From a bacterium (GTDB taxonomy: Bacteria; Patescibacteriota; JACMRA01): 39,185 bases of DNA. Location: the NCBI GenBank assembly GCA_043765655.1, contig JAYUIW010000078.1, forward strand, positions 1 to 39,185, in the 5' to 3' direction. The translations under genes were made by a program, and so were the position numbers. A model generated the notes under the pieces. That model saw nothing but the letters and a program-made list of their open reading frames with translations. It searched no databases and was not told the DNA's origin. Each line of letters starts with the position of its first letter. Within the stretch, counting starts at the first letter, position 1. Positions 7,086-38,079 of this stretch are shown here, one piece after another.

Positions 7086-7568
7086 TTAGGACTTGAACCG
7101 CACATCCATTAGACCACACATTGCAATTGCCAAGGCATCGGCGGCATCATCTGGACCGTTTATCTTATCAATTTTGTACAGTTTTTTGACCATTGTTTGG
7201 ATTTGTTTTTTGTCGGCTCTACCGTAATTACAGATAGATTTTTTGACTTGAAGTGGAGTTATATTTTTGACTTGTATATTATTCTTAGCTAGATGGGCTA
7301 CGATTGCCCCACGACTTTGAGCTACATCAATAACTGTCTTGGCATTTTTGAAGAAAAAGAGATCTTCTACAATCGCGAATGTTGGTTGGTATTTTTGGAT
7401 CAAAATATCAAGGTCGCTAATTATCTCGGCAATTCTCCGCTCTTGTTCGCCGTCAGCTCGCTTGTCGGTAGTTATAACTCCATAATCAATTATAACTGGA
7501 TTAGACAATGTACCTTCCACAAAGGCAAATCCGATAATATTAATCCCTGGGTCAATTCCTAGTAGCAT
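7086..7568 (-). CDS. ruvC: crossover junction endodeoxyribonuclease RuvC
   Basis: MLLGIDPG..IGFAFVEG, AIVEDLFFFKN, AQSRGAIV, ITPLQVKKSICNYGRADKKQIQ, DDAADALAIAMC. Start moved to ATG 7568 (the track extension 7569-7622 is hydrophobic junk). Confidence 0.9.
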   Translation of the reverse strand: MLLGIDPGINIIGFAFVEGTLSNPVIIDYGVITTDKRADGEQERRIAEIISDLDILIQKYQPTFAIVEDLFFFKNAKTVIDVAQSRGAIVAHLAKNNIQVKNITPLQVKKSICNYGRADKKQIQTMVKKLYKIDKINGPDDAADALAIAMCGLMDVRFKS

Positions 7569-7572
7569 AAAG

Positions 7573-8043
7573 TTAAATATCAAAACAGTAAGTTTGATCA
7601 AGTTTATGAGTAAAATAATCATTCAAGATTGTATCAGTGTGCTCTAAATTCAAAAAATTAACTAATTTATGTATAAAATATGGACCTTCATGCCAAGTTC
7701 CAGCTTCAATTTTAATAATACAGTTAGAAGGAATCTCAAAAGCTTCAATTTTGGATAAATCTGGGCTACTTAAATCATTATTTGGAGGGCAAACAGCTAA
7801 AATCCAGTTTTTATTGTCCATTGAACCAAGGCATTGCGAACAATTTATATGACGACTTATTTTGTTAAAACTTAAACCATGCTCTTCTAATTGCATTATA
7901 TACAGTCTAGGTTCTCCTCTTTTGATGTCTAGGTTAAGATCTAAGTCTTCACTAAATGGTCTGCGATTATCGCAGGGATAGATAACTTCTCCAAATTCCT
8001 TAAAGTTTTCGGGTGATATTAATATTGGTTTTAATTTGATCAT
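7573..8043 (-). CDS. ureidoglycolate lyase/hydrolase (AllA)-like cupin protein
   Basis: Pattern matches the AllA family: PENFKEFGEVI, a LEEHGLSFNKISRH stretch (H-containing strand), AFEIP....IKIEAGTWHEGPYF. Family level only; the substrate is uncertain. Confidence 0.5.
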   Translation of the reverse strand: MIKLKPILISPENFKEFGEVIYPCDNRRPFSEDLDLNLDIKRGEPRLYIMQLEEHGLSFNKISRHINCSQCLGSMDNKNWILAVCPPNNDLSSPDLSKIEAFEIPSNCIIKIEAGTWHEGPYFIHKLVNFLNLEHTDTILNDYFTHKLDQTYCFDI

Positions 8044-11827: not shown

Positions 11828-12872
11828 TTTTTTGATTATTCTGATCTCTCTCTTCTTTGTTTCGCACTGGTTCGGTACGATTAATATTCTACTAAGCTTG
11901 GTTTTTGATTTGGTTGATAAGCCTGATGGCGACCGCAAACTCCAAAAAAGCCCTGTTCCCCTAGCTGGAATTACCTTAAGTTTATTACTAGCCACTGCCG
12001 TGTCTACCAGTTTATTCTTTGAGAATGAGTTTTGGGGTAGGCTCAATATAATTTCTAACCTAGAACTTACCAAGAATATCGACAATCCTGTGAATTGGTG
12101 GTGGGTAGTCGCTGGAATTATAATCATACTAATTGGTGGATTAATTGATGACAAAAATAACCTCAAATCTTGGCAACTAGCAATTCCTATTAACGTCGGA
12201 CTACTGGCAATTGTCTTTGGTGGAAATCTGCGAATTGAAGCCTTGAGTTATCCATTCGATACTATAATTCCAAGTTTTGGTTTTTTGCATCAGTTTTTGG
12301 CATGGGTCTGGCTGGGACTATGTCTAGCCACCACTAAGTTCCTCGATGGACATGATGGCTTGGTCTCTAGCGTTGGAATAATTAACTTTATGGTTATTGC
12401 TTTTATGGCTTTTTTGCCAAGTATTAATCAGCCTTTGATTTGGTCGATTTGTCTTGTCTGGATTGCCTGTATTGCAGGCTTTTTGCCGTATAATCTTCCC
12501 AATGCCCAGTCCTACATCGGCGAAGGAGCTTCGGAATTAATCGGGCTAATGATCGGCATCCTCTCCATTCTTTCCGGTGCCAAACTCGCCACAAGCTTCA
12601 GCATCGTTGGCTGGTTCTTATTGGATTTAATGCTAGTACTCTTTATTAGGTATAAGAATGGCAAAAATATATTGCAAGCTGGTCGTGAACATTGGCATTT
12701 TAGGCTACTAGATTACGGATTCTCCAAGTGGCAAGTATTGATAATGAGTATAATTCTAATTAGTTTCACAGGCTTTTTTGGAGCGGTTCTCCCAACGGTT
12801 TACAAGCCGATTATTATCTTGTTCGAACTAGTCATTCTCCTTGGTATATTCAAGGTTACTAGCAGAAAGTAA
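11817..12872 (+). CDS. MraY/WecA-family polyprenyl-phosphate sugar-1-phosphate transferase (glycosyltransferase family 4)
   Basis: About 10 TM segments, GGLIDDKNNL (DD motif) and KFLDGHDGL (NxxDGxDGL-type motif). Overlaps the upstream ORF by 11 nt. Confidence 0.8.
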   Translation: MTLNFLIILISLFFVSHWFGTINILLSLVFDLVDKPDGDRKLQKSPVPLAGITLSLLLATAVSTSLFFENEFWGRLNIISNLELTKNIDNPVNWWWVVAGIIIILIGGLIDDKNNLKSWQLAIPINVGLLAIVFGGNLRIEALSYPFDTIIPSFGFLHQFLAWVWLGLCLATTKFLDGHDGLVSSVGIINFMVIAFMAFLPSINQPLIWSICLVWIACIAGFLPYNLPNAQSYIGEGASELIGLMIGILSILSGAKLATSFSIVGWFLLDLMLVLFIRYKNGKNILQAGREHWHFRLLDYGFSKWQVLIMSIILISFTGFFGAVLPTVYKPIIILFELVILLGIFKVTSRK

Positions 12873-12876
12873 TGAT

Positions 12877-12905
12877 TTGACATTAGCCAAAAAGTAGTGT
12901 ATAAT
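12877..12905 (+). promoter_or_regulatory. consensus promoter; spacer nearly identical to the cassette-array promoters
   Basis: TTGACA (12877-12882), spacer TTAGCCAAAAAGTAGTG (17 nt), TATAAT (12900-12905), 4 nt before ATG 12910. Confidence 0.6.
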
Positions 12906-12909
12906 ACTA

Positions 12910-13725
12910 ATGTTTAAAAATCGCAATTATTTTATTTTTATGCCAAATCTACAAGAAAACAACACTCAAGGAATAGAAAGCCCATCCAGAAGAAAATTTT
13001 TAATAAATTCAGCACTTGGAGCACTTGCTAGCGAAACTATCTCTAATCTACAAGCCACAGCAAAAATTTCCGCTCAAAAAAACCAGGTACAAACTAATTC
13101 TAGATCATTTCCAGAAAACAATCTAATATCCCTTGAAGCTGTAAATGTAGCCAAGGAAGCTAGAAAACTTGGTATGGTTAGAGCAAAAGATGTTATACCT
13201 AATGTTCTTCAACGAACTGCATACGCTAGAGATGATAACTTTACTAACGAACAAATGTATGAATCTGACACATCAATTTGGGGTAAAAAAGAAACTTTAC
13301 TCAAGATTGGTAAGGTTGATTCAGCTCTCAGACAGTATGGTCTTAGATTAATTTTGGTTGATATGTATAGACCTCAATCAGTTGCTAATGAATTTGGTAA
13401 AATCGCCAAATAGCGTGGAATTGATCCAAAGTATGTTGCTCAATCTACAGACTCTCAAGGAAATATTAGAACAGGTCATACCAGCGGTCATGTTGTAGAT
13501 GTAATGTTAGCTAACTTAGACGGCACACCTGCAGAAACTCCAACTAATTTTGATGGATTCCCAAAATCTGGACTTGAAAGAGAGGATGGAAATATACCTG
13601 ATTGGAAAGATTTTTCAAACTGGAGCGAAGAAGCAAAGAACAATGTCACTTACCTAAAAAGAGAAATGAAAAACCAAGGAGGTAAACAGATTGACACTGA
13701 ATGGTGGCATTGGAGTTTTGGATAA
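12910..13725 (+). pseudogene. VanX/DdpX-type D-Ala-D-Ala dipeptidase (M15) with twin-arginine signal, interrupted by in-frame TAG at 13411-13413
   Basis: SRRKFLINSALGALA matches a Tat motif. ARDDNFTN, VDMYRPQSV, then TAG; the same frame continues RGIDPKYVAQS...GHTSGHVVDV (H..D zinc ligands) and EWWHWSF. Confidence 0.7.
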
Positions 13726-13782
13726 ATAGTTTTTTAAATTTTATACTTTTACTCTATTCACAAGATTTAATACTTTCACCTT

Positions 13783-13808
13783 AAGCCCTCAATAGGCTTT
13801 TTTCTTTT
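13783..13808 (+). terminator. rho-independent terminator
   Basis: AAGCC-CTCAATA-GGCTT, followed by TTTTTCTTTTACCCAAAA. Confidence 0.55.
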
Positions 13809-13819
13809 ACCCAAAAATT

Positions 13820-17602: not shown

Positions 17603-19033
17603 CTATCTCAAAATATTTTTCATCATCTCAACCTTAGTGGCAACATAATCCACTTTGCCAATGTCAGATCTGTGGAACATCGGACCGTCGATTAATCCAA
17701 TAATATCTTCAACTTTGGCTTCTGCTTCACTAATATCATCACCGACACAACACACCGCAATGGCACGACTTCCTTTGAGCATTATCACTGGTTCCTCACT
17801 CTCATCATCCACATATTCCTCGGATTCGAAGTCACCCACATCAGAATTCACAACTTCGGTTTCATCAACAGACCCGAAGAATATACTTTCCCAATTCTCC
17901 TCAATATCTCCTTCAACGAATAGTCGACTAATATCAATTGCTTCGTTCTTGATAGGTTTGTTAGGATAGCCGATCGGAACTAGATATTTGCAAACTGAAG
18001 CCTTAGGGCTAAATTTAATATTGATAGTGTCCAAAGTCTTATTCGCCATATTCACCAAAATCTCCACAAGATCCGTCTCAAGTAAACTCATCAAATTCTC
18101 ACATTCTGGATCTCCGAATCTGGCATTATATTCAATAAGTTTGACACCATTTCGAGTTTTCATAAATCCGCCATACATTACACCTACGAATCCCACTCCC
18201 TCGCTTTTCATAGCCTCGAAGACCGCCTTGGTAATATTCTCAGCTTCAACTTTGTCATCGTCGTTCAAAAAAGGCAAAAGATGGTTAGAGTCGCTATAAG
18301 TTCCCATTCCTCCAGTATTCGGGCCCTCATCTCCTTCGTATGCCCGCTTGTGATCTTGGATAATAGGCGACAGAAACTGAATATTCTGACCGTCACATAA
18401 AGCAAAATAACTGAATTCTTGTCCTTCCAATTTTTGTTCGATTAAGAAACTTCCTTTGGCATCAATGATTTCCTTACAGAACTTTAGACCTTCCTGAATT
18501 GTCACGAAGTGATCATCTTGAACTTGGACACCTTTGCCACCGCACAATCCATCAGCCTTGATTACGAACTTGGTTCCCATAGTGTTGATAAAATCCTCAA
18601 CTCCATCCATAGTATTGAAGGCTTTGTACATCGGCGAACCATCAATATTATACTTGGTGAGTAAATCTCTAGTAAAAGTCTTAGACCATTCCAGTTTGGC
18701 TTGTTCCTTGGTCGGACTGACAATTCTAATTCCGCTTCTTAGCAATTCATCCCCTACACCAGCTTCACTTGGATTCTCTGGACCAACTAACGCAATGTCA
18801 ATTTTGTTCTCGAGAGCAAAAGCTGTAACCTGAGCAGGTGAATTAATATCTCCGAGTCTAAAGTTCGCCGACTTGAGGAGAATATCAGGATTACGAGTAT
18901 TCCCAAAACAAAAAATTAAAGGTTTATATTTGGAGCGAAAAAGGGACTTAATTATAGCATTCTCACGAGCTCCAGAACCGACGATCAAGATTCTTAGACC
19001 TTTGGTAAGTTGCAAAATATTTTCTGTAGACAT
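17603..19033 (-). CDS. purD: phosphoribosylamine--glycine ligase
   Basis: ILIVGSGARENAI, VGPENPSEAG, VIKADGLCGGKGV, ATP-grasp core, EYNARFGDPE. Carries an acidic insertion near aa 395-420. Confidence 0.9.
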   Translation of the reverse strand: MSTENILQLTKGLRILIVGSGARENAIIKSLFRSKYKPLIFCFGNTRNPDILLKSANFRLGDINSPAQVTAFALENKIDIALVGPENPSEAGVGDELLRSGIRIVSPTKEQAKLEWSKTFTRDLLTKYNIDGSPMYKAFNTMDGVEDFINTMGTKFVIKADGLCGGKGVQVQDDHFVTIQEGLKFCKEIIDAKGSFLIEQKLEGQEFSYFALCDGQNIQFLSPIIQDHKRAYEGDEGPNTGGMGTYSDSNHLLPFLNDDDKVEAENITKAVFEAMKSEGVGFVGVMYGGFMKTRNGVKLIEYNARFGDPECENLMSLLETDLVEILVNMANKTLDTINIKFSPKASVCKYLVPIGYPNKPIKNEAIDISRLFVEGDIEENWESIFFGSVDETEVVNSDVGDFESEEYVDDESEEPVIMLKGSRAIAVCCVGDDISEAEAKVEDIIGLIDGPMFHRSDIGKVDYVATKVEMMKNILR

Positions 19034-19041
19034 ATTCTAGA

Positions 19042-19070
19042 ATTCTATTAATTCTTAGGCTTTTTGTCAA
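19042..19070 (-). promoter_or_regulatory. purD promoter (near-leaderless)
   Basis: TTGACA (19070-19065), 17 nt, TAGAAT (19047-19042), 8 nt before ATG 19033. Confidence 0.6.
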
Positions 19071-19083
19071 CATAAAATTAATT

Positions 19084-19141
19084 TCCCCCCTATTATAAAA
19101 CGGAGCTTAAATTAATTCCCCCTATTAGGGGGTAAGGGGGT
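19084..19141. repeat. GC-rich palindromic element (CCCCCTATTAGGGGG type)
   Basis: TTCCCCCCTATTA ... TTCCCCCTATTAGGGGGTAAGGGGGTACC, with a perfect CCCCC/GGGGG stem at 19118-19132. Confidence 0.45.
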
Positions 19142-19154
19142 ACCAAAATTACCC

Positions 19155-19183
19155 TTGACATTACCCAAAAAGTATGATAGATT
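19155..19183 (+). promoter_or_regulatory. cassette promoter copy 1
   Basis: TTGACA, spacer TTACCCAAAAAGTATGA, TAGATT. Confidence 0.6.
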
Positions 19184-19254
19184 TAAAACAGCTAAAAAAC
19201 TAATTACAGTCAATTCATATCTAAATCATTATAATTACCCAAAATATATTCATT

Positions 19255-19740
19255 ATGTTCACAAAACAAATCAAACAAAATTCCAAGAGATTGGCTAAAG
19301 GGGAGTTGTTTAGAAGTATTGCATTACTAGCAGTTGTTGGAGCGGGCGGTTTTACAGTTAATAAAATTGGTCAACTTAACGAAGAAGTAGGCTACCAAAA
19401 AAGCCTTGTAGAAACTTATCAACAAACTGAAAGAAGGATTCGTCAAGAAAGTGAAGAATTAGAACAACAGCTATTAGTATCTGAGATAAAAAGAATGTTT
19501 CCCGAAGCGTCATATTTAGATATAAAAATAAATAATGAAGAAAGGTATTTAACTGTTGACATAAATGATTCTACAAAAACAAATTCGGAAATTAAAAAAA
19601 TATTAAATAAGCTTATTAACACTGATTCTGTAAATGAAGATTTGAGTAATCCTAAGTTTCAAAGATATATTGTTAAGATTAAAAAATTAAATAAACTACC
19701 TTTTCCTGTTCCAAACATTCCAACTAACAACCAAAGATAA
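19255..19740 (+). CDS. cassette-family protein 1 (161 aa, N-terminal membrane anchor, tail PNIPTNNQR)
   Basis: MFTKQIKQNSK, then hydrophobic IALLAVVGAGGFTV, a coiled-coil-like segment and an alpha/beta region. Paralog of 20399 and 21139. Confidence 0.7.
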   Translation: MFTKQIKQNSKRLAKGELFRSIALLAVVGAGGFTVNKIGQLNEEVGYQKSLVETYQQTERRIRQESEELEQQLLVSEIKRMFPEASYLDIKINNEERYLTVDINDSTKTNSEIKKILNKLINTDSVNEDLSNPKFQRYIVKIKKLNKLPFPVPNIPTNNQR

Positions 19741-19764
19741 ACATTCCAAAGTGATCCATTAATT

Positions 19765-19790
19765 CTCCTATTTAGGAGTTCTTTGCTTGG
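19765..19790 (+). terminator. cassette terminator copy 1
   Basis: CTCCT-ATTT-AGGAG followed by TTCTTTGCTT. The same sequence follows all three paralogs. Confidence 0.55.
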
Positions 19791-19812
19791 TAAATTAATC
19801 CCAAAACTACCC

Positions 19813-19841
19813 TTGACATTACCCAAAAAGTGTAGTAAACT
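19813..19841 (+). promoter_or_regulatory. cassette promoter copy 2 (drives different small ORFs)
   Basis: TTGACA, spacer TTACCCAAAAAGTGTAG, TAAACT. Confidence 0.55.
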
Positions 19842-19928
19842 AAAATTACAAGTTCACCAAAAACAATCAGCAAAGCTAATTCTAGAACTATAACTTAGAA
19901 CTAACCAAAAAAAATAATTTAACAATCA

Positions 19929-20117
19929 ATGGAACAACTTCACCTCCAAGAATTCAAGCAACAATACATTATCAATATCAATATCGACTTTCAAAGCATA
20001 ACTTATAGCGAGTTAAGCGATCAAGACAAGTCAAGAATTCTAGAACTTATCAATCCACCAAAAAAAATCAAGGTTTATATCAGTTGGTTTATTTGGATCG
20101 GGACCAATATGAATTAA
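19929..20117 (+). CDS. small hypothetical ORF (62 aa) with A8 tract; the -1 frame continues to 20191
   Basis: ORF from the track. The A8 run at 20060-20067 forms A_AAA_AAA in the zero frame. The -1 frame is open from there through a TAATG-overlapped 24-codon ORF ending at 20191. Confidence 0.4.
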   Translation: MEQLHLQEFKQQYIININIDFQSITYSELSDQDKSRILELINPPKKIKVYISWFIWIGTNMN

Positions 20118-20296
20118 TGTCAAAATTAGTCGGATCAACTAATATTAATAGGATCAAACCAGACCCAGAATATGTAGAAATTAATTATTAAGCTAAAACC
20201 TAATTAGTATATATTTATTTTTATTCCAAAATTCAAGGTAACGATACCCGATCCCAAAACCTATAAAATCTATACAAAATATTCCCAAAATTACCC

Positions 20297-20325
20297 TTGA
20301 CATTACTCAAAAAGTAGAATATACT
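20297..20325 (+). promoter_or_regulatory. cassette promoter copy 3
   Basis: TTGACA, spacer TTACTCAAAAAGTAGAA, TATACT. Confidence 0.6.
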
Positions 20326-20398
20326 TAAAAAAGCTAAAAAACTAATTCATCAGTCAATTATAGCTAGATTATTACAAATCATACAAAATATATTCATT

Positions 20399-20965
20399 AT
20401 GTTCACAAAACAAATCACACAAAATACAAAACAATACGGAAGTAGAGAGGTAATCAGAAACATTGGAATAGGCACTGCTTTAGTAGGAGGTGGTCTTATG
20501 TTAAATAAAATTGACACTCTTCAAAAAGATTTAAAATCTGAGCGAGATGATTTTGCAAGAACTTTTAATTCATATTTAAAAAGTACAATTGAAAATGATA
20601 CTTTACACTCAGAAAAAACTGAATTAAAACAACAGCTTGTAATTTCAGAAATTCAAAAAGTAATTCCTCAAGCAAGATTAGTGTTTTCTAGAGATAATAT
20701 TCAAGGAATAGGAAGCTCTGTAGAAATCGTACTTCCAAAAGGTGAGTTATCAAAAGATGAAATTCAAACTTTTTTAAACAAAATTGGAGAAGTGTATGGA
20801 AGCGTTGATAACCCAACTACAATTGGTTTTGAAGATGAGTCTAATGTTGCAAGATATGGAAAATTATTAAGTCTTCCTGAAAATAGTAAAGGTGTTGTCT
20901 ATGACAGCTATAAATGTTTTTTTAATATTAAACCAAAAGTAGCTCCATCAATTAACCCAAGATAA
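20399..20965 (+). CDS. cassette-family protein 2 (188 aa, tail APSINPR)
   Basis: MFTKQITQNTK, then hydrophobic IGIGTALVGGGLML. Same architecture as 19255 and 21139. Confidence 0.7.
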   Translation: MFTKQITQNTKQYGSREVIRNIGIGTALVGGGLMLNKIDTLQKDLKSERDDFARTFNSYLKSTIENDTLHSEKTELKQQLVISEIQKVIPQARLVFSRDNIQGIGSSVEIVLPKGELSKDEIQTFLNKIGEVYGSVDNPTTIGFEDESNVARYGKLLSLPENSKGVVYDSYKCFFNIKPKVAPSINPR

Positions 20966-20989
20966 ATATTCCAAAGTTATAACTCAATT

Positions 20990-21010
20990 CTCCTATTTGG
21001 GAGTTTTTTG
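20990..21010 (+). terminator. cassette terminator copy 2
   Basis: CTCC-TATTTG-GGAG followed by TTTTTTG. Confidence 0.55.
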
Positions 21011-21037
21011 CTTGGTAAATTAATCCCAAAACCATCC

Positions 21038-21066
21038 TTGACATTACTCAAAAAGTAGAGTAAACT
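21038..21066 (+). promoter_or_regulatory. cassette promoter copy 4
   Basis: TTGACA, spacer TTACTCAAAAAGTAGAG, TAAACT. Confidence 0.6.
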
Positions 21067-21138
21067 TAAGGTAGCTAAAAAACTAATTACAGTCATTACA
21101 TAGCTAAAATTATTATAATTACCCAAAATATATTCACT

Positions 21139-21765
21139 ATGTTCACAAAACACATCACACAAAATTCCAAGAGATTTGGAGGATTAGAAAAAATTGGCTA
21201 TACAGCACTTGCACTAACAACAGCAGCAGGACTTATTAATATGGACCAACAATTCAAAAAAGATATTGAATCCTTGCAAAACCAAAATCCTACAAAAACT
21301 GAAATGGTTACAACCACCTCTGACACTCATCTACTTTCTGGAGAAGAAAGAGAGTTTAAGGGAATTTCACCAGTACTTAAAAATAGAATGAATGAAATTA
21401 TGAATCAAAACAAAGAAGCAAATTTAGAGAGTTTAAAAAAATTGGTTGAGAATTTATTTCCTGAATCAAAATTAATCACACTTTACTCGGAAACTCCAAA
21501 CTATCCTGGATATTCTTTAGAATTAACTTTTGTTAAAGGTTCTGTAGACGAAAATCAGGTTTTAGAACGCTTAAAAAAAGTTGGAAAAGTTAATTTCCAT
21601 AATAGTGATACAAAAAGTTTTGTAGCCAATGGTGAAGATAAAAATTATAAAGTATTGTTTGAGAATAATAAAGATCAAGTTTATACTACTTATGAATTTA
21701 CAATTATACCTAATTCTGGTAATTTTAAGAAAGCTCCAAGCATTCCAACAAGAAACCCAAGATAA
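21139..21765 (+). CDS. cassette-family protein 3 (208 aa, tail APSIPTRNPR)
   Basis: MFTKHITQNSK, then hydrophobic YTALALTTAAGLI. Same architecture as the other two paralogs. Confidence 0.7.
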   Translation: MFTKHITQNSKRFGGLEKIGYTALALTTAAGLINMDQQFKKDIESLQNQNPTKTEMVTTTSDTHLLSGEEREFKGISPVLKNRMNEIMNQNKEANLESLKKLVENLFPESKLITLYSETPNYPGYSLELTFVKGSVDENQVLERLKKVGKVNFHNSDTKSFVANGEDKNYKVLFENNKDQVYTTYEFTIIPNSGNFKKAPSIPTRNPR

Positions 21766-21789
21766 ACATTCCAAAGTTATCACTCAATT

Positions 21790-21815
21790 CTCCTATTTCA
21801 GGAGTTTTTTGTTTT
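21790..21815 (+). terminator. cassette terminator copy 3 (shared with convergent gene 21826-22512)
   Basis: CTCCT-ATTTC-AGGAG followed by TTTTTTGTTTTG. Confidence 0.55.
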
Positions 21816-21825
21816 GCCCACAGTC

Positions 21826-22512
21826 CTAAAATGATTCTAGATCGATGCTACTAATATTTTTGAGCTTAATGGAATTGGCTGTGTCAGGATTGTAACAACT
21901 ATACATCAAGGCAATTAATTGCTCGGTATTGAGAAGACTAACCTTGAGATCTAGTCCGCCGCCGACCTTGCCCATTACTTCGTCCACACGGTTCATTAGA
22001 GATTTTTTGTTTTGTTGGAATTCATCTTCGCTTTGTTTGATAATTCTAGCTGGGTTCAAGGCTCGCAGGAATATCCCGAAGATACCTTCGCTGAGCTTGG
22101 TAGGTTCATAGCCAACGACAATGTAGAAGTTCCGCTCCATAATATTGGAATCTAGAATAATGTTCTGAATGTAGTCGATGTATTCTTGCATTTTGACTCT
22201 TAGAAGATCATTTTGTTGTGTGTCTAGCAATCCTTTTAATTTAGCAATATACTCATCAAGATTAACCTTGCGGTTTTGTACCAAGATCTGAATTGGGAAG
22301 TCGAGTGAATTGAGAATTCCTTGGAATGTATTGATAATTATTTCTTTTTCTTCTTGGTTCTTGAGGGCGAAGTTGGTACTAGCAACCGCGATTACCGATC
22401 TCATCTGTGATTCACGAAGCACCAGAACATTGTCTCGAATTTCGGAAACTTGGAGGAAATTAAGTGTGGAAAGTGAGGTTTTGTTGCTGACTTTGGTTGA
22501 TTTTGTTGGCAT
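21826..22512 (-). CDS. stand-alone protein resembling the N-terminal (pre-ATPase) region of Gram-positive/CPR VirB4-TraE-type conjugation ATPases
   Basis: LNFLQVSEIRDNVLVLRESQMRSVIAVASTNFALKNQEEKEIIINTFQGILNSLDFPIQILVQNRKVNLDEYI. From memory, this follows the pattern of the N-terminus of Tn916 Orf16 / TcpF-type VirB4 homologues. No Walker A or B motif anywhere in the 228 aa. Confidence 0.35.
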   Translation of the reverse strand: MPTKSTKVSNKTSLSTLNFLQVSEIRDNVLVLRESQMRSVIAVASTNFALKNQEEKEIIINTFQGILNSLDFPIQILVQNRKVNLDEYIAKLKGLLDTQQNDLLRVKMQEYIDYIQNIILDSNIMERNFYIVVGYEPTKLSEGIFGIFLRALNPARIIKQSEDEFQQNKKSLMNRVDEVMGKVGGGLDLKVSLLNTEQLIALMYSCYNPDTANSIKLKNISSIDLESF

Positions 22513-22526
22513 TTTTGGAGATTTAT

Positions 22527-22736
22527 TTATTTTACTAGATTTTTTATTTTAATAGCCTTTTCAAAATGGTCTAATTTATGCTCCATTATCCACCACGTTG
22601 CTATTTCCAGCAATAATTCAGGATTGGTATTCTTGTTCTCAAAAAAAGCATAAAAAGAAAGCCCAACACCATCCCCAGACTTGGCTATTTTGTCACCACA
22701 GACTTTTATTATTTTTAGTTGCATTTGTTTTGTCAT
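22527..22736 (-). CDS. small hypothetical protein (69 aa), probably co-transcribed with 21826-22512
   Basis: ATG ORF ending 14 nt upstream of the next start. No recognisable motif. Confidence 0.35.
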   Translation of the reverse strand: MTKQMQLKIIKVCGDKIAKSGDGVGLSFYAFFENKNTNPELLLEIATWWIMEHKLDHFEKAIKIKNLVK

Positions 22737-22863: not shown

Positions 22864-24165
22864 ATGGATAACAACCAACTCAACAACTACGCGTCAGATG
22901 TTAATAATACTGGGAATATTTTGCCAAATGTAATCCCAAATCTCTCTCAAGGTACAATCCAAAATACAGACTATAGTAACTATACTAACTCCCAAAACAC
23001 ACCTCAAGTTCAATACGACGCTAACGGACAAGCAATATTCCAACAACCAATCCAATCAACAGACCCTAATTATACACAGTACAACGACCAATATGCTGGT
23101 CAATACGTAGATACCAATGGCTACTATCAACAACCCTCAGTCGATCAGTACTCTAACCCAACCAATTACGATTACACTACAGGTTATCCTGATCAATACT
23201 CTACCACGGCAACTGCTCCTATAGATTATTCTAGCGTTCAATACGATCAATATGGACAAGCGATTAACAATACTTCAGTTGATTATAATTCTGCTGCGAA
23301 CTACGATTATTCTAATACTCAGAATCTAACTTATCCTGAGAACTACAGTGAATATAATCCACAAGGATATCAGACTCAAGATAACAATATAATTAATAAT
23401 GATGCTTCGAGTTCTTTTGACACTAGTTCTGTCGTTACCAAAAAACCTAATTCTAACTTAATTCTTATTGGAATAGCTGGACTGGTCTCACTATTGTTAA
23501 TCGGAGCTGGAGTTTTCTTTTATTTTTTTACTAGGTCAAAGACAACACAACAACCAGTGGATACCTTAACATCGTCTTCAATAGCAACCGAAACAACAAG
23601 CTCAAGTTCGTTAGATGCAATGATCAAAACACCAACAACTTCCACAACTGGGGGAAGCGACACACCTGCTAGTCGAGCCAAAACTTTAAGCGCAACGACT
23701 CTTCCTGCTCAGTGGCTTTTGTCTAACTTTAAGGCAACTTCTAACCCTGACGGGACTTGTTCCAAATTACTGGTATGTGGGCCTGAGGCAGACCCTGATA
23801 ACGACAATCTATCTAATATAGAAGAGTACAACTTCTCAAGTTCTCCAACTCAATCTGATACTGATAGTGATGGGGTTGCTGATGGTGATGAAGCTTTTGT
23901 ATACTATACTAACCCAACCAAAAAAGACTCAGACGCAGATACTTTTGATGATGCTAGTGAGCCTGCCAACTGTTTTGATCCAATTGATTCAACTGGCGCC
24001 AAGCTCAGCTCAGCTAGACAAAAACAAATCGTAGCAAGTATCAAATCTCTAAAATCAGGAACATTATCCAAAACAACTCAGGATATGCTTGTCGAAAAAG
24101 GAGTTAGCGAACTTAATATCGAAACTGGATTCAACAGTTCTAAGTGTGGAACCATTGTTAATTAG
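22864..24165 (+). CDS. single-pass membrane protein with Q/N/Y-rich low-complexity N-terminal half, S/T-rich linker and thrombospondin type-3-like Ca-binding repeats
   Basis: About 190 aa of N/Q/Y/T-rich sequence, then TM segment LILIGIAGLVSLLLIGAGVFFYFF. After that come DPDNDNLSNIEEY, DTDSDGVADGDE, NPTKKDSDADTFDD. Confidence 0.7.
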   Translation: MDNNQLNNYASDVNNTGNILPNVIPNLSQGTIQNTDYSNYTNSQNTPQVQYDANGQAIFQQPIQSTDPNYTQYNDQYAGQYVDTNGYYQQPSVDQYSNPTNYDYTTGYPDQYSTTATAPIDYSSVQYDQYGQAINNTSVDYNSAANYDYSNTQNLTYPENYSEYNPQGYQTQDNNIINNDASSSFDTSSVVTKKPNSNLILIGIAGLVSLLLIGAGVFFYFFTRSKTTQQPVDTLTSSSIATETTSSSSLDAMIKTPTTSTTGGSDTPASRAKTLSATTLPAQWLLSNFKATSNPDGTCSKLLVCGPEADPDNDNLSNIEEYNFSSSPTQSDTDSDGVADGDEAFVYYTNPTKKDSDADTFDDASEPANCFDPIDSTGAKLSSARQKQIVASIKSLKSGTLSKTTQDMLVEKGVSELNIETGFNSSKCGTIVN

Positions 24166-25613: not shown

Positions 25614-25642
25614 ATTATACACAATATTTTTTTGGTTGTCAA
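25614..25642 (-). promoter_or_regulatory. orphan perfect-consensus promoter
   Basis: TTGACA (25642-25637), exactly 17 nt, TATAAT (25619-25614). It lies downstream of the zwf stop and points into ORF-free DNA. Confidence 0.6.
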
Positions 25643-36948: not shown

Positions 36949-37005
36949 TTACCCCTTTTTAAAGGGGTGAGCCGAATGGCTCGGGGATTTTGTTTTAAAA
37001 GATAA
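36949..37005 (+). terminator. double-hairpin terminator module, family A copy 2
   Basis: TTACCCCTTTTTAAAGGGGTGAGCCGAATGGCTCGGGGATTTTGTTTTAAAAGATAAA. Same stems as 2097-2152 with different loops. Confidence 0.65.
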
Positions 37006-37022
37006 ATAGTAATATTTATAAA

Positions 37023-38079
37023 ATGTCAGATAATTTAATAAGCCAAACTACAGGTTCAGTCGACGATCTAAAATATAGACAAACACTCCAAGAGCTAGTT
37101 CAATCTATTCAAAAATCCAGATATGAAATGCTCAAATCGGTTAGCAAGCAAACAGTTGACCTCTACTGGAATATTGGCAAAACCGTAAGTGAGAAAATCT
37201 CTAAAGAAAATTGGGGCGATTCTGTTATCAAAACTTTATCCAAGGATTTTCAATCAGAATTCTCTGGAATTAGAGGTTTTTCGGCTTCAAACTTGTGGAG
37301 AATGAAAGCATTTTATGATAAATATTCTCAAAACATAAAACTCGCACCACTGGTACGAGAAATTGGTTGGGTGCAAAATTGTTTGATTTTGGAAAAATGT
37401 AAAGATGAACTGGAGATTGAATTTTATCTCAGACAAACAAATCTCAAAGGTTGGTCAAAGCTAGATCTTCAAAGACAAACTTGAACACAAATTATTCCAA
37501 AATCAACTTCTAGCCCAAAATAATTTTGACAATACAATTCCAGAAGATCTAAAACAAAGAGTAGCTTGGGAATTCGTGGATGACTACAACGTAGAACTAA
37601 TCAACCCAGATCAACCAATTGCTGAAAGAGAGCTTGAAAATACGATCGTTGATAATATCGTTAATTTTTTGGGTCAAATGGGTGGTAACTTTGCTTTTGT
37701 TGGAAGGCAAGTCAAAGTCGAACTAAACGACAAAGAATATTTTATTGACCTACTGTTTTTTAATTTTAAGCTCAATTGTTATGTAGTTGTGGAACTCAAA
37801 GCAAGAGAATTCAACGCCAAAGATATTGGTCAACTCCAAATGTACCTCGCTCTAACGAATAACAAAATCAAATCTGACGAACAAAACGCAACCATAGGAA
37901 TTTTGATCTGTCGTACTAAAAACCGAACCGAAGTGGAATATATGCTCAACACTAGTCGAGAACCGTTGGGAGTAGCAACATATAATAATTATAGGACAAT
38001 CAACGAACTCCCAGCTGAAATAGCTCAATACCTTCCAACCGAGACTCAAGTCATTGAGAAGTTACTTAATTTGGAGTAA
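37023..38079 (+). pseudogene. DUF1016/YhcG-family PD-(D/E)xK nuclease gene split by a 1-nt frameshift near 37465-37484
   Basis: N-terminal part: LYWNIGK, WGDSVIKTLSKDF, GFSASNLWRMKAFY, GWSKLDLQRQ, then TGA. The +1 frame continues LEHKLFQNQLLAQNNF...ERELENTIVDNIVNFLGQMGGNFAFVGRQ...IDLLFFNFKLNCYVVVELK...GQLQMY. Confidence 0.7.

Follow-up and report, generated by a model that had tools for sequence, protein, structure and literature searches.

When a gene is duplicated, the non-coding DNA around it usually diverges faster than the coding sequence (CDS), and the locus described here raises the question of how the opposite pattern could have arisen. In a contig of 39,185 nucleotides (nt) from a bacterium of the Patescibacteriota (JAYUIW010000078.1 of assembly GCA_043765655.1; the whole contig is called the window below), positions 19113–21815 are occupied by a tandem array with four copies of one promoter, three of which precede paralogous open reading frames (ORFs) designated g1, g3, and g4. 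The DNA flanking these three genes is more alike than the genes themselves, which is contrary to the usual course and therefore needs a cause. In the explanation that we consider probable, albeit not by a wide measure, whole transcription units were duplicated, the junctions between them were homogenised as DNA and also kept by selection, and the parts of the genes encoding the ectodomains diverged.

The promoter copies are recognised first by the motif CCTTGACATTACYCAAAAAGT, which has exact matches at 19153, 19811, 20295, and 21036 against a chance expectation of 0 (100 dinucleotide-preserving shuffles). The −35 hexamers TTGACA (Table 1) start where the original prediction, made from the sequence alone, had placed four copies of a promoter, and the −10 hexamers, all of the form TA...T, follow a spacer of 17 nt in four of four copies, as had also been claimed. 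In an independent scan with the consensus TTGACA-17 nt-TAnnnT, the same four sites score 10–11 out of 12 and are among the top five promoter-like sites on both strands of positions 18900–22000. Promoters 1, 3, and 4 lead through a conserved leader into the three paralogous ORFs. The leaders are A-rich and about 65 nt long, and they contain two blocks, AGCTAAAAAACTAATT and CAAAATATATTCA, that are unchanged across all three; an alike 5' untranslated region of about 70 nt running into alike first codons was thus correctly anticipated. Directly 3' of each of the three genes, furthermore, an intrinsic-type terminator is predicted, namely a 5-bp GC-containing hairpin with a T-run, and the number of terminator-like sites in the region is seven against 1.2 expected. 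From these features we infer that the units carry active promoters and terminators of their own.

The folding energies of the leaders range from −1.4 to −6.2 kcal/mol (z = −0.2 to −2.1), and folding gave no shared or stable structure among the three. Neither was an Rfam match obtained at the gathering threshold or at E ≤ 1. Being unstructured and without an Rfam family, the leaders are therefore not riboswitch-type elements, and the idea of a structured leader was rejected. As a separate observation on gene starts, most genes in the window have a TATAAT-like hexamer ending 2–14 nt before the ATG and no Shine–Dalgarno sequence (e.g., at 2236, 7573(−), 12910, 29949(−), 31389(−), and 32503(−)); from the position of the hexamer and the missing Shine–Dalgarno sequence, the genome appears to be dominated by leaderless mRNAs, to which the three genes of the array would be exceptions. 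In g1 and g4, an internal TATAAT is located 18 nt 5' of the ATG and may mark the real start.

In terms of pairwise DNA identity among g1, g3, and g4, the 115 nt located 5' of the ATG are 81–87% identical over ungapped columns (78–83% over all alignment columns), and the first 45 nt of the CDS are 73–84% identical (ungapped columns). At the other end, the last 18 nt of the CDS together with 60 nt downstream are 79–83% identical over ungapped columns, in agreement with the claim that the 3' ends are conserved at the DNA level across the stop codon. The cores between these ends, in contrast, retain a DNA identity of 48–53% over ungapped columns (36–43% over all columns) and an amino acid identity of 25–32%. 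After proper alignment, flank identity (78–87%) is hence well above core identity (48–53%), as the original prediction had it. The limits of the conserved flanks are sharp: a codon-aware sliding window places them at about −119 to +38 relative to the ATG and from about −25 relative to the stop codon to +60, with an identity of 0.8–1.0 from about −119 to about +30, an abrupt fall to 0.0–0.6, and a rise about 25 nt before the stop codon.

The conserved DNA can be described as one continuous junction, composed in this order of the 3' codons, the terminator, a spacer, the promoter, the leader, and the 5' codons, which is present at its full length of about 233 nt between g3 and g4. The copy behind g1 is 126 nt long, ends after the −10 hexamer of promoter 2, and is 85% identical to 20944–21069. 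Between these two internal junctions, the terminator-to-promoter spacer, which is without evident function, is 93–97% identical; indeed, this spacer and the stretch from the stop codon to the hairpin are conserved as strongly as the promoter. Within the first 13 conserved codons, the codons that differ between two genes include 3–4 nonsynonymous and 0–1 synonymous changes per pair, and as these differences are mostly nonsynonymous, the conservation acts on DNA and not on the protein. Also, the closest pair shifts along the unit. The pairing of g1 with g4 is backed by 12 of the 19 informative sites from −60 to +39 (99 columns) and by 0 of 12 from −120 to −60, and the support for the pairs is heterogeneous across segments with p = 0.008 in a chi-square test, which is a weak one with three sequences and no outgroup.

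The cores themselves are related in a patchy manner. When only cores were compared by BLASTP, g1 matched g3 with E = 1e-8 in the half containing the transmembrane (TM) segment and the coiled coil, and g3 matched g4 with E = 3e-5 in the C-terminal domain, while no match was found between g1 and g4. The cores are thus still detectably homologous, solely via g3, and the paralogy is real but mosaic. The G+C content at third codon positions (GC3) of the family genes and their cores is 14–20%, compared with 33 ± 8% in 24 neighbouring genes (G+C content of the window, 34.7%), and the conserved first codons retain C- or G-ending codons (TTC, ATC, TCC, and AAG) despite this low GC3. The synonymous-codon preferences of the family genes nonetheless correlate well with those of the background (r = 0.84); low GC3 and this correlation together fit native genes that evolve fast or are weakly constrained better than a recent foreign import. 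A GC3 as low as that of the cores is in keeping with AT-biased mutation in sequences that evolve fast or under weak constraint.

Table 1. Coordinates of the features composing the array (window positions; promoters, terminator hairpins, and TM-like segments are predicted; aa, amino acids).
Feature	Position	Strand	Content
GC-rich hairpin element AATTCCCCCTAnnAGGGGGTAAGGGGGTACCAAAA, 35 nt	19113–19147	+	Upstream boundary of the array
5' module of unit 1	19143–19292	+	−35 at 19155, 17-nt spacer, −10 TAGATT ending at 19183, ~65-nt leader, first 38 nt of the CDS
g1, 161 aa	19255–19740	+	Basic N-tail, TM-like residues 19–35, helix, alpha/beta domain, C-terminal PNIPTNNQR
Junction module 1→2	19719–19844	+	Last codons of g1, stop codon, hairpin 19765–19778 with T-run, spacer, promoter 2 (−35 at 19813, −10 TAAACT ending at 19841)
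Unit 2 body	19845–20284	+	Unrelated to the family
5' module of unit 3	20285–20436	+	−35 at 20297, −10 TATACT ending at 20325, leader, CDS up to nt 38
g3, 188 aa	20399–20965	+	
Full junction module 3→4, ~233 nt	20944–21176	+	Last codons of g3, stop codon, hairpin 20990–21003, spacer, promoter 4 (−35 at 21038, −10 TAAACT ending at 21066), leader, g4 up to nt 38
g4, 208 aa	21139–21765	+	Architecture as in g1, linker longer; C-terminus APSIPTRNPR
3' module of unit 4	21735–21814	+	Last codons, stop codon, hairpin 21790–21804 with T-run; end of the array

In the explanation that we favour, the array would be a tandem family specific to the lineage, consisting of three complete transcription units born by whole-unit duplication. 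Each unit would combine its gene with a near-consensus sigma-70-type promoter, an A-rich and unstructured leader (about 65 nt), and a small terminator of the intrinsic type. The junction modules would have been kept about 80–95% alike, most likely by homologous recombination or gene conversion between neighbouring copies, and selection on the common expression signals would have reinforced this likeness. The cores coding for the ectodomains would have diverged almost past recognition and drifted to a very low GC3, and the outcome would be three different ectodomains placed under the same transcription, translation, and membrane-insertion signals. The nonsynonymous changes in the first codons, the alike spacer, the shifting closest pair, and the mosaic cores point to homogenisation of DNA, and our best estimate is a mixture of causes in which gene conversion would be the main one for the junction overall. 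Concerted evolution or gene conversion had been put forward by the original prediction; it fits the first codons, the spacer, and the shifting pair, but the support is weak, and shared selection may explain the pattern instead.

Several points weigh against this explanation. Flanks that are 78–87% and not about 100% identical mean that any conversion has been neither recent nor frequent, and the test for mosaicism has the weakness mentioned above. No population variants, chimeric cassettes, or copy-number differences were found across the contigs recovered, and the hydrophobicity of the presumed TM segment is marginal for g3 and g4 (Kyte–Doolittle value of about 1.3). Elements of the promoter, furthermore, recur outside the array: at 12877–12905, 4 nt before the ATG of an unrelated and leaderless-looking M15 peptidase gene, TTGACATTAGCCAAAAAGTAGTGTATAAT has the −35 hexamer and spacer of the array promoters with 3 mismatches in 21, and TTGAC-N-CAAAAA promoters are also found at 25642(−) and in two relatives (contigs L024 and L026). 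From this recurrence, part of the promoter identity is probably a selected consensus of the lineage.

These last observations lead to the possibility that selection alone accounts for the pattern, which we regard as rather unlikely. Each part of the flank would then be functional and under purifying selection, with the promoter spacer containing an operator, the leader acting as a translational enhancer in a genome otherwise devoid of Shine–Dalgarno sites, the N-tail binding a common partner or insertase, and the C-terminal motif and the terminator having roles of their own; the cores would be free to diverge, and conversion would be unneeded. The −35 hexamer and spacer at 12877 and the similar architecture in relatives would be consistent with this, as would the invariance of AGCTAAAAAACTAATT and CAAAATATATTCA in three of three leaders and a flank identity of merely 78–87%; also, in a genome dominated by leaderless-looking genes, a long leader may need a specific sequence. 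Selection alone, however, does not readily explain why the terminator-to-promoter spacer and the stop-to-hairpin stretch are as conserved as the promoter, why the differences in the conserved codons are mostly nonsynonymous, or why the closest pair shifts along the flank, and the leader that it would have to preserve has no stable or shared structure and no match in Rfam.

The products offer another way to look at the locus. All three proteins begin with MFTK[QH]I[KT]QN and end with P[SN]I(PT)xN[PQ]R; the first 16 residues of each contain 3–5 basic and 0 acidic residues, and a weakly hydrophobic segment of about 17 residues has a Kyte–Doolittle value of 1.68 in g1, 1.34 in g3, and 1.28 in g4. 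Cys is absent from the first 100 residues of all three proteins, and there is no lipobox. Two AlphaFold2 models, for which the input was the alignment of the three sequences, have a mean predicted local distance difference test score (pLDDT) of 58 and 63, with about 70–89 in the C-terminal domain of both, and they agree in the succession of elements, in which a long helix precedes beta-beta-alpha-beta-beta-alpha-beta. Hydropathy and models agree with the earlier claim that the divergent cores keep a common architecture. The products would be bitopic membrane proteins with the N-terminus inside and the C-terminus outside, carrying an extracytoplasmic alpha/beta domain, and a function at the cell surface may be presumed. 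Three Foldseek searches (PDB and BFVD) gave no match with E ≤ 1e-3; the weak matches are ferredoxin-like folds, with a circularly permuted S6 at a probability of 0.85 and, at 0.1–0.33, Amuc_1100, PilO (2rjz), the C-terminal domain of PulL (8a9w), and a protein of the type II secretion system (T2SS; 5hl8).

It might be considered from such matches that the three proteins are divergent relatives of PilN/PilO/GspM, forming a hetero-oligomeric membrane scaffold of a pilus or secretion platform, with the flank pattern being incidental. The architecture as modelled, with a short N-tail in the cytoplasm, a single TM helix, a coiled coil, and a domain of alpha-beta-beta repeats, would be similar to that of PilN/PilO/GspM, and the low-ranking Foldseek entries 2rjz, 8a9w, 5hl8, and Amuc_1100 are in line with this idea. 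We nonetheless judge it improbable. None of these entries reached a significant sequence or fold match, their probabilities being those given above; PilN, PilO, and GspM/T2SSM families of Pfam and NCBIfam were not matched; and no pilM, pilB, pilC, secretin, or other secretion genes are found in the 39 kb. The genes are, furthermore, not arranged as an operon but each has its own predicted promoter and terminator, and a core assembly component should persist in relatives, none of which has it.

The distribution of the family is indeed extremely narrow. A profile of the three proteins matched only themselves in an index of 5.8 billion clusters, and an exhaustive HMMER search of 1.84 billion representatives gave nothing beyond the three; no homologue was obtained by scanning JGI metagenomes with back-translated motifs, no match to the three proteins in Pfam (E ≤ 0.1), NCBIfam, PHROGs, or PADLOC, nothing relevant in a profile search of the PDB, and no match of g4 to phages by tblastn. 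The exact promoter pattern occurs 18 times in GTDB species genomes, 3 times in IMG/VR, and 67 times in JGI metagenomes, all being single matches attributable to chance. When both flanks and unit 2 were compared by blastn with 100 loci, only the seeded 20-mer was recovered, and flank modules outside the array were found in none of the GTDB species genomes, IMG/VR, the JGI metagenomes, or the 100 loci. The three proteins are thus orphans of a family confined to one species-level population. The original prediction had named as its alternative an annotated single-copy family in an arrangement invariant among relatives; we found no family match, and the array is absent from relatives. As the family is limited to one such population, functional inference stays weak.

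 The upstream, divergent neighbour of the array is purD, and the 3' end of the array is convergent with a gene at 21826–22512(−) encoding a TraC-like protein of 228 aa (VirB4 N-terminal-like, PF26593), which is accompanied by DUF6500. A Q/N-rich TM protein, Band_7, G6PD, GroES/EL, and aminoacyl-tRNA synthetases are encoded farther away, and the neighbours are housekeeping or conserved hypothetical genes. No recombinase, integrase, invertase, transposase, or reverse transcriptase was detected near the array, either in Pfam scans of the tested ORFs of at least 90 aa or in the precomputed Pfam assignments, which cover the remainder of the window; the sole recombination-type gene in the window is RuvC at 7086–7622, about 11 kb from the array. 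The inverted repeats near the array are only AT-rich chance matches (72–89%), and all copies are in direct orientation. The absence of a recombinase, a reverse transcriptase, and an invertible repeat nearby had already been noted from the sequence, and the Pfam and inverted-repeat scans agree.

The TraC-like protein merits a remark of its own. It stands alone, matching NCBIfam VirB4_plasma with E = 1e-11 over residues 3–133, and its gene adjoins DUF6500 at 22527–22736(−) and, at 22864–24165(+), a gene for a TM protein that is rich in Q/N/Y and has Asp-rich repeats of the TSP3-like kind. Both the TraC-like gene and this divergently oriented one recur in relatives among the Patescibacteria with 57–93% identity, with no full-length VirB4 ATPase nearby. 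Among the names given to homologues of the TraC-like protein is “Patescibacteria group bacterium”, and together with the G+C content and the genes present, this assigns the window to a CPR-type bacterium with a small genome.

Four relatives, in which the TraC-like protein is 71–93% identical, were found to have no array at the site and no analogous repeated junctions within 10 kb. In the closest (93%), a RecG-like gene is in the place of the array, which is hence located at a synteny breakpoint, and in those with 71–73% identity other genes occupy the site. Within the species, each of the three proteins forms a one-sequence cluster at 90% and is found on 6–8 contigs from ENA, Logan, and NCBI samples; in the look-ups, which took in up to 11 contigs, the arrays were 100% identical in all contigs recovered from several samples. 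Some contigs end at 19143, 20388, and 21136, and these ends coincide exactly with branch points of the repeats; copy-number variation was rejected as their cause, the assembly being a sufficient explanation.

Unit 2 differs from the others, since the sequence past the −10 hexamer of promoter 2 up to promoter 3 is unrelated to the family. It contains two overlapping ORFs, 19929–20117 (62 aa) and 20084–20191 (35 aa), between which the frame changes at a run of eight A at 20060–20067; one additional A would give an ORF of 87 aa, and the run is identical in all contigs. It may point to a pseudogene, act as a slippage site, or stem from an error in the consensus. Searches of Pfam, PADLOC, and phage genomes with the fused product of 87 aa gave no match, and no terminator is predicted after the ORFs; in the absence of a predicted terminator, transcription from promoter 2 probably continues into unit 3. 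Similarity to the family is limited to the promoter, and unit 2 as a decayed family member was rejected. It may be a degraded or captured ORF, and the capture of unrelated ORFs by promoter copy 2, suggested by the original prediction, is compatible with the sequence.

Taken further, the junction modules might be portable adaptors for expression and recombination that capture and exchange ORFs without any dedicated recombinase, unit 2 being a captured one. We hold this to be very improbable. Promoter 2 and the 3' module before it are fused to unrelated DNA right past the −10 hexamer, and the array lies at the synteny breakpoint mentioned above; however, there is only one such unit, its ORF is frame-disrupted with neither a homologue nor a terminator, and the flank module is seen nowhere else in the collections scanned. 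A link between the array and sod needs to be mentioned here. The 35-nt hairpin AATTCCCCCTAnnAGGGGGTAAGGGGGTACCAAAA at the upstream boundary, about 40 nt upstream of which a partial left arm, AATTAATTTCCCCCCTATTA, is found in the window, has a second copy right after sod elsewhere in the same species (contig L028, 7487–7521; also contig L003, 4367–4401), and it is by way of this hairpin that sod and the array are joined in contig L003. L003 is, however, a single, low-k contig, whereas in a relative and in five other contigs the gene after sod is a PFO-beta gene; L003 was accordingly downgraded as evidence of mobility. With that gene order elsewhere, only the hairpin in common between the sod locus and the array, and a sod-type loop in L003, this contig represents either a chimera of the assembly or a rare recombination event at the hairpin. 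In the boldest form of the idea, to which we likewise give little credence, junctions of about 230 nt would serve as portable adaptors, providing both expression signals and homology, for swapping, losing, and capturing cores, providing an episymbiont of the Patescibacteria with an exchangeable set of ectodomains; unit 2, the synteny breakpoint, and L003 would then be traces of exchange events.

The comparison with known systems helps to delimit what the array is. In the Vlp system of Mycoplasma hyorhinis, a hypermutable poly-A tract of varying length lies in the spacer between the −35 and −10 hexamers, whereas the spacer in the array has a run of five A, is 17 nt long in four of four copies, and is the same in all contigs. 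The vsp/vpma genes of Mycoplasma bovis and M. agalactiae have a conserved non-coding region of about 70 bp before the ATG and a conserved short N-terminal segment, after which they diverge (PMC3365025), and the array shares this conserved 5' non-coding region with N-terminal codons. Unlike the array, in which a basic tail is combined with an uncleaved-looking anchor, the N-terminus of vsp/vpma is a lipoprotein signal peptide; their variable part consists of in-frame tandem repeats, whereas Tandem Repeats Finder (TRF) detected only trivial, low-score arrays of 16–33 nt in the locus and none in the cores. Switching of vsp/vpma is driven by a tyrosine recombinase of the Xer type encoded next to the genes, and expression is limited to some of the copies, whereas the array has no recombinase or inverted copies, each copy is equipped with a predicted promoter and terminator of its own, and conservation extends to the 3' end. 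Of the mycoplasma analogy made in the original prediction, therefore, the conserved 5' region stands, but the lipobox, the repeats, the recombinase, the hypermutable tract, and ongoing variation do not. That the array is a phase- or antigenic-variation locus of the Vsp/Vlp/Vsa type, switched by recombination in the 5' region or by promoter slippage, is hardly credible even for a small-genome and probably host-associated bacterium with a vsp/vpma-like leader and N-terminal codons before divergent genes (PMC3365025), given N-termini without Cys or lipobox, cores without tandem repeats, no recombinase in the window except the distant RuvC, complete promoters in directly oriented copies without significant inverted repeats, a promoter spacer with an A5 run only, and one-member clusters with identical arrays across contigs and samples. 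Nothing indicates on/off switching.

Other families are similar in part. Borrelia burgdorferi has a family in which a conserved promoter or upstream box and a leader-peptide region precede divergent surface-protein genes and serve co-regulation; its erp loci are scattered over cp32 prophage plasmids, code for lipoproteins, and lack a conserved module at the 3' end. The array resembles this “upstream homology box” (erp/ospE/ospF-related) family (Marconi et al. 1996; Akins et al. 1999; both cited in PMC10016077) in having a common upstream expression region before divergent genes, but is tandem, has a conserved 3' module, and showed no prophage context in PHROGs and phage searches. In the lpl cluster of Staphylococcus aureus, the 3' end, the intergenic stretch, and the 5' end of the following ORF constitute one evolutionary unit, and recombination occurs between conserved segments (Tsuru and Kobayashi 2008; PMC2568036). 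Tandem paralogues with a junction behaving as a unit are found in the array too, but in a mirrored way: lpl conserves the middle of the ORF with varying junctions, whereas the array conserves the junction with a varying middle, and the evidence for lpl comes from multiple strains, that for the array from one population. The babA/babB genes of Helicobacter pylori have near-identical 5' and 3' coding ends around a divergent middle, with gene conversion between the paralogues. Conserved ends around a divergent middle are a feature of the array as well, whereas the bab loci are dispersed, encode large beta-barrel adhesins, and have coding conserved ends, those of the array being promoter, leader, and terminator. 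Integron cassette arrays, finally, have an integrase, attI/attC sites, and promoterless cassettes; the array has no integrase, its repeats are promoters and terminators in place of attC sites with their imperfect palindromes, and there is a promoter in every unit.

The array can hence be filed as a tandem paralogue family with concerted flanks, a sort of system that is already known. What sets it apart is that both ends and the whole junction are conserved, that each copy has a complete set of signals, that no recombinase is present, and that the product is an orphan and not a lipoprotein. Elsewhere in the same species (contig L028), two adjacent genes at 12052–13044 and 13061–13813 encode proteins of 330 and 250 aa, both starting with M[KS]QKTIITTxLAIL (a signal anchor); their DNA is 87% identical over 63 nt at the start, and the remainder has diverged. 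With this pair, the genome has a further, though weaker, example of a divergent ectodomain behind a conserved 5' end.

Some additional features of the genome were noticed. Short intergenic repeats of the GTCATCCTGA/GTCATTCTGAGC...GAAGAATC type are present at about 8150 and about 16290 in the window, at 7540–7790 in L028, and at about 2440 in contig L025, and look like a small dispersed family in the species and a relative. A direct repeat of 71 nt, 70% identical between 2100–2170 and 36953–37023, contains a double hairpin, CCCCTTTgAGAAGGGG-TGAGCCnAAnGGCTCGGGG, followed by a T-run; located downstream of two unrelated genes, it is probably a common bidirectional terminator element. Also, a DUF1016 N-terminal domain (37023–37484) and a YhcG PDDEXK nuclease domain (37576–38079) are encoded by separate ORFs about 90 nt apart, which suggests a split or frame-disrupted gene for a YhcG-like nuclease.

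In conclusion, the pattern of conserved junctions around divergent cores is clean, statistically solid, and a real case of paralogue evolution, while it opens no new mechanism and gives no sign of a switching device. If our explanation is true, the array would show, in compact and unusually clean form, how expression signals evolve in concert while the membrane-protein genes between them diversify. It comes from a lineage, the Patescibacteria or Candidate Phyla Radiation (CPR), about whose surface biology and gene regulation next to nothing is known, and its four near-identical candidate strong promoters, its non-Shine–Dalgarno leader, and its minimal terminator may serve as first-guess expression parts or as benchmarks for transcription starts in these bacteria.

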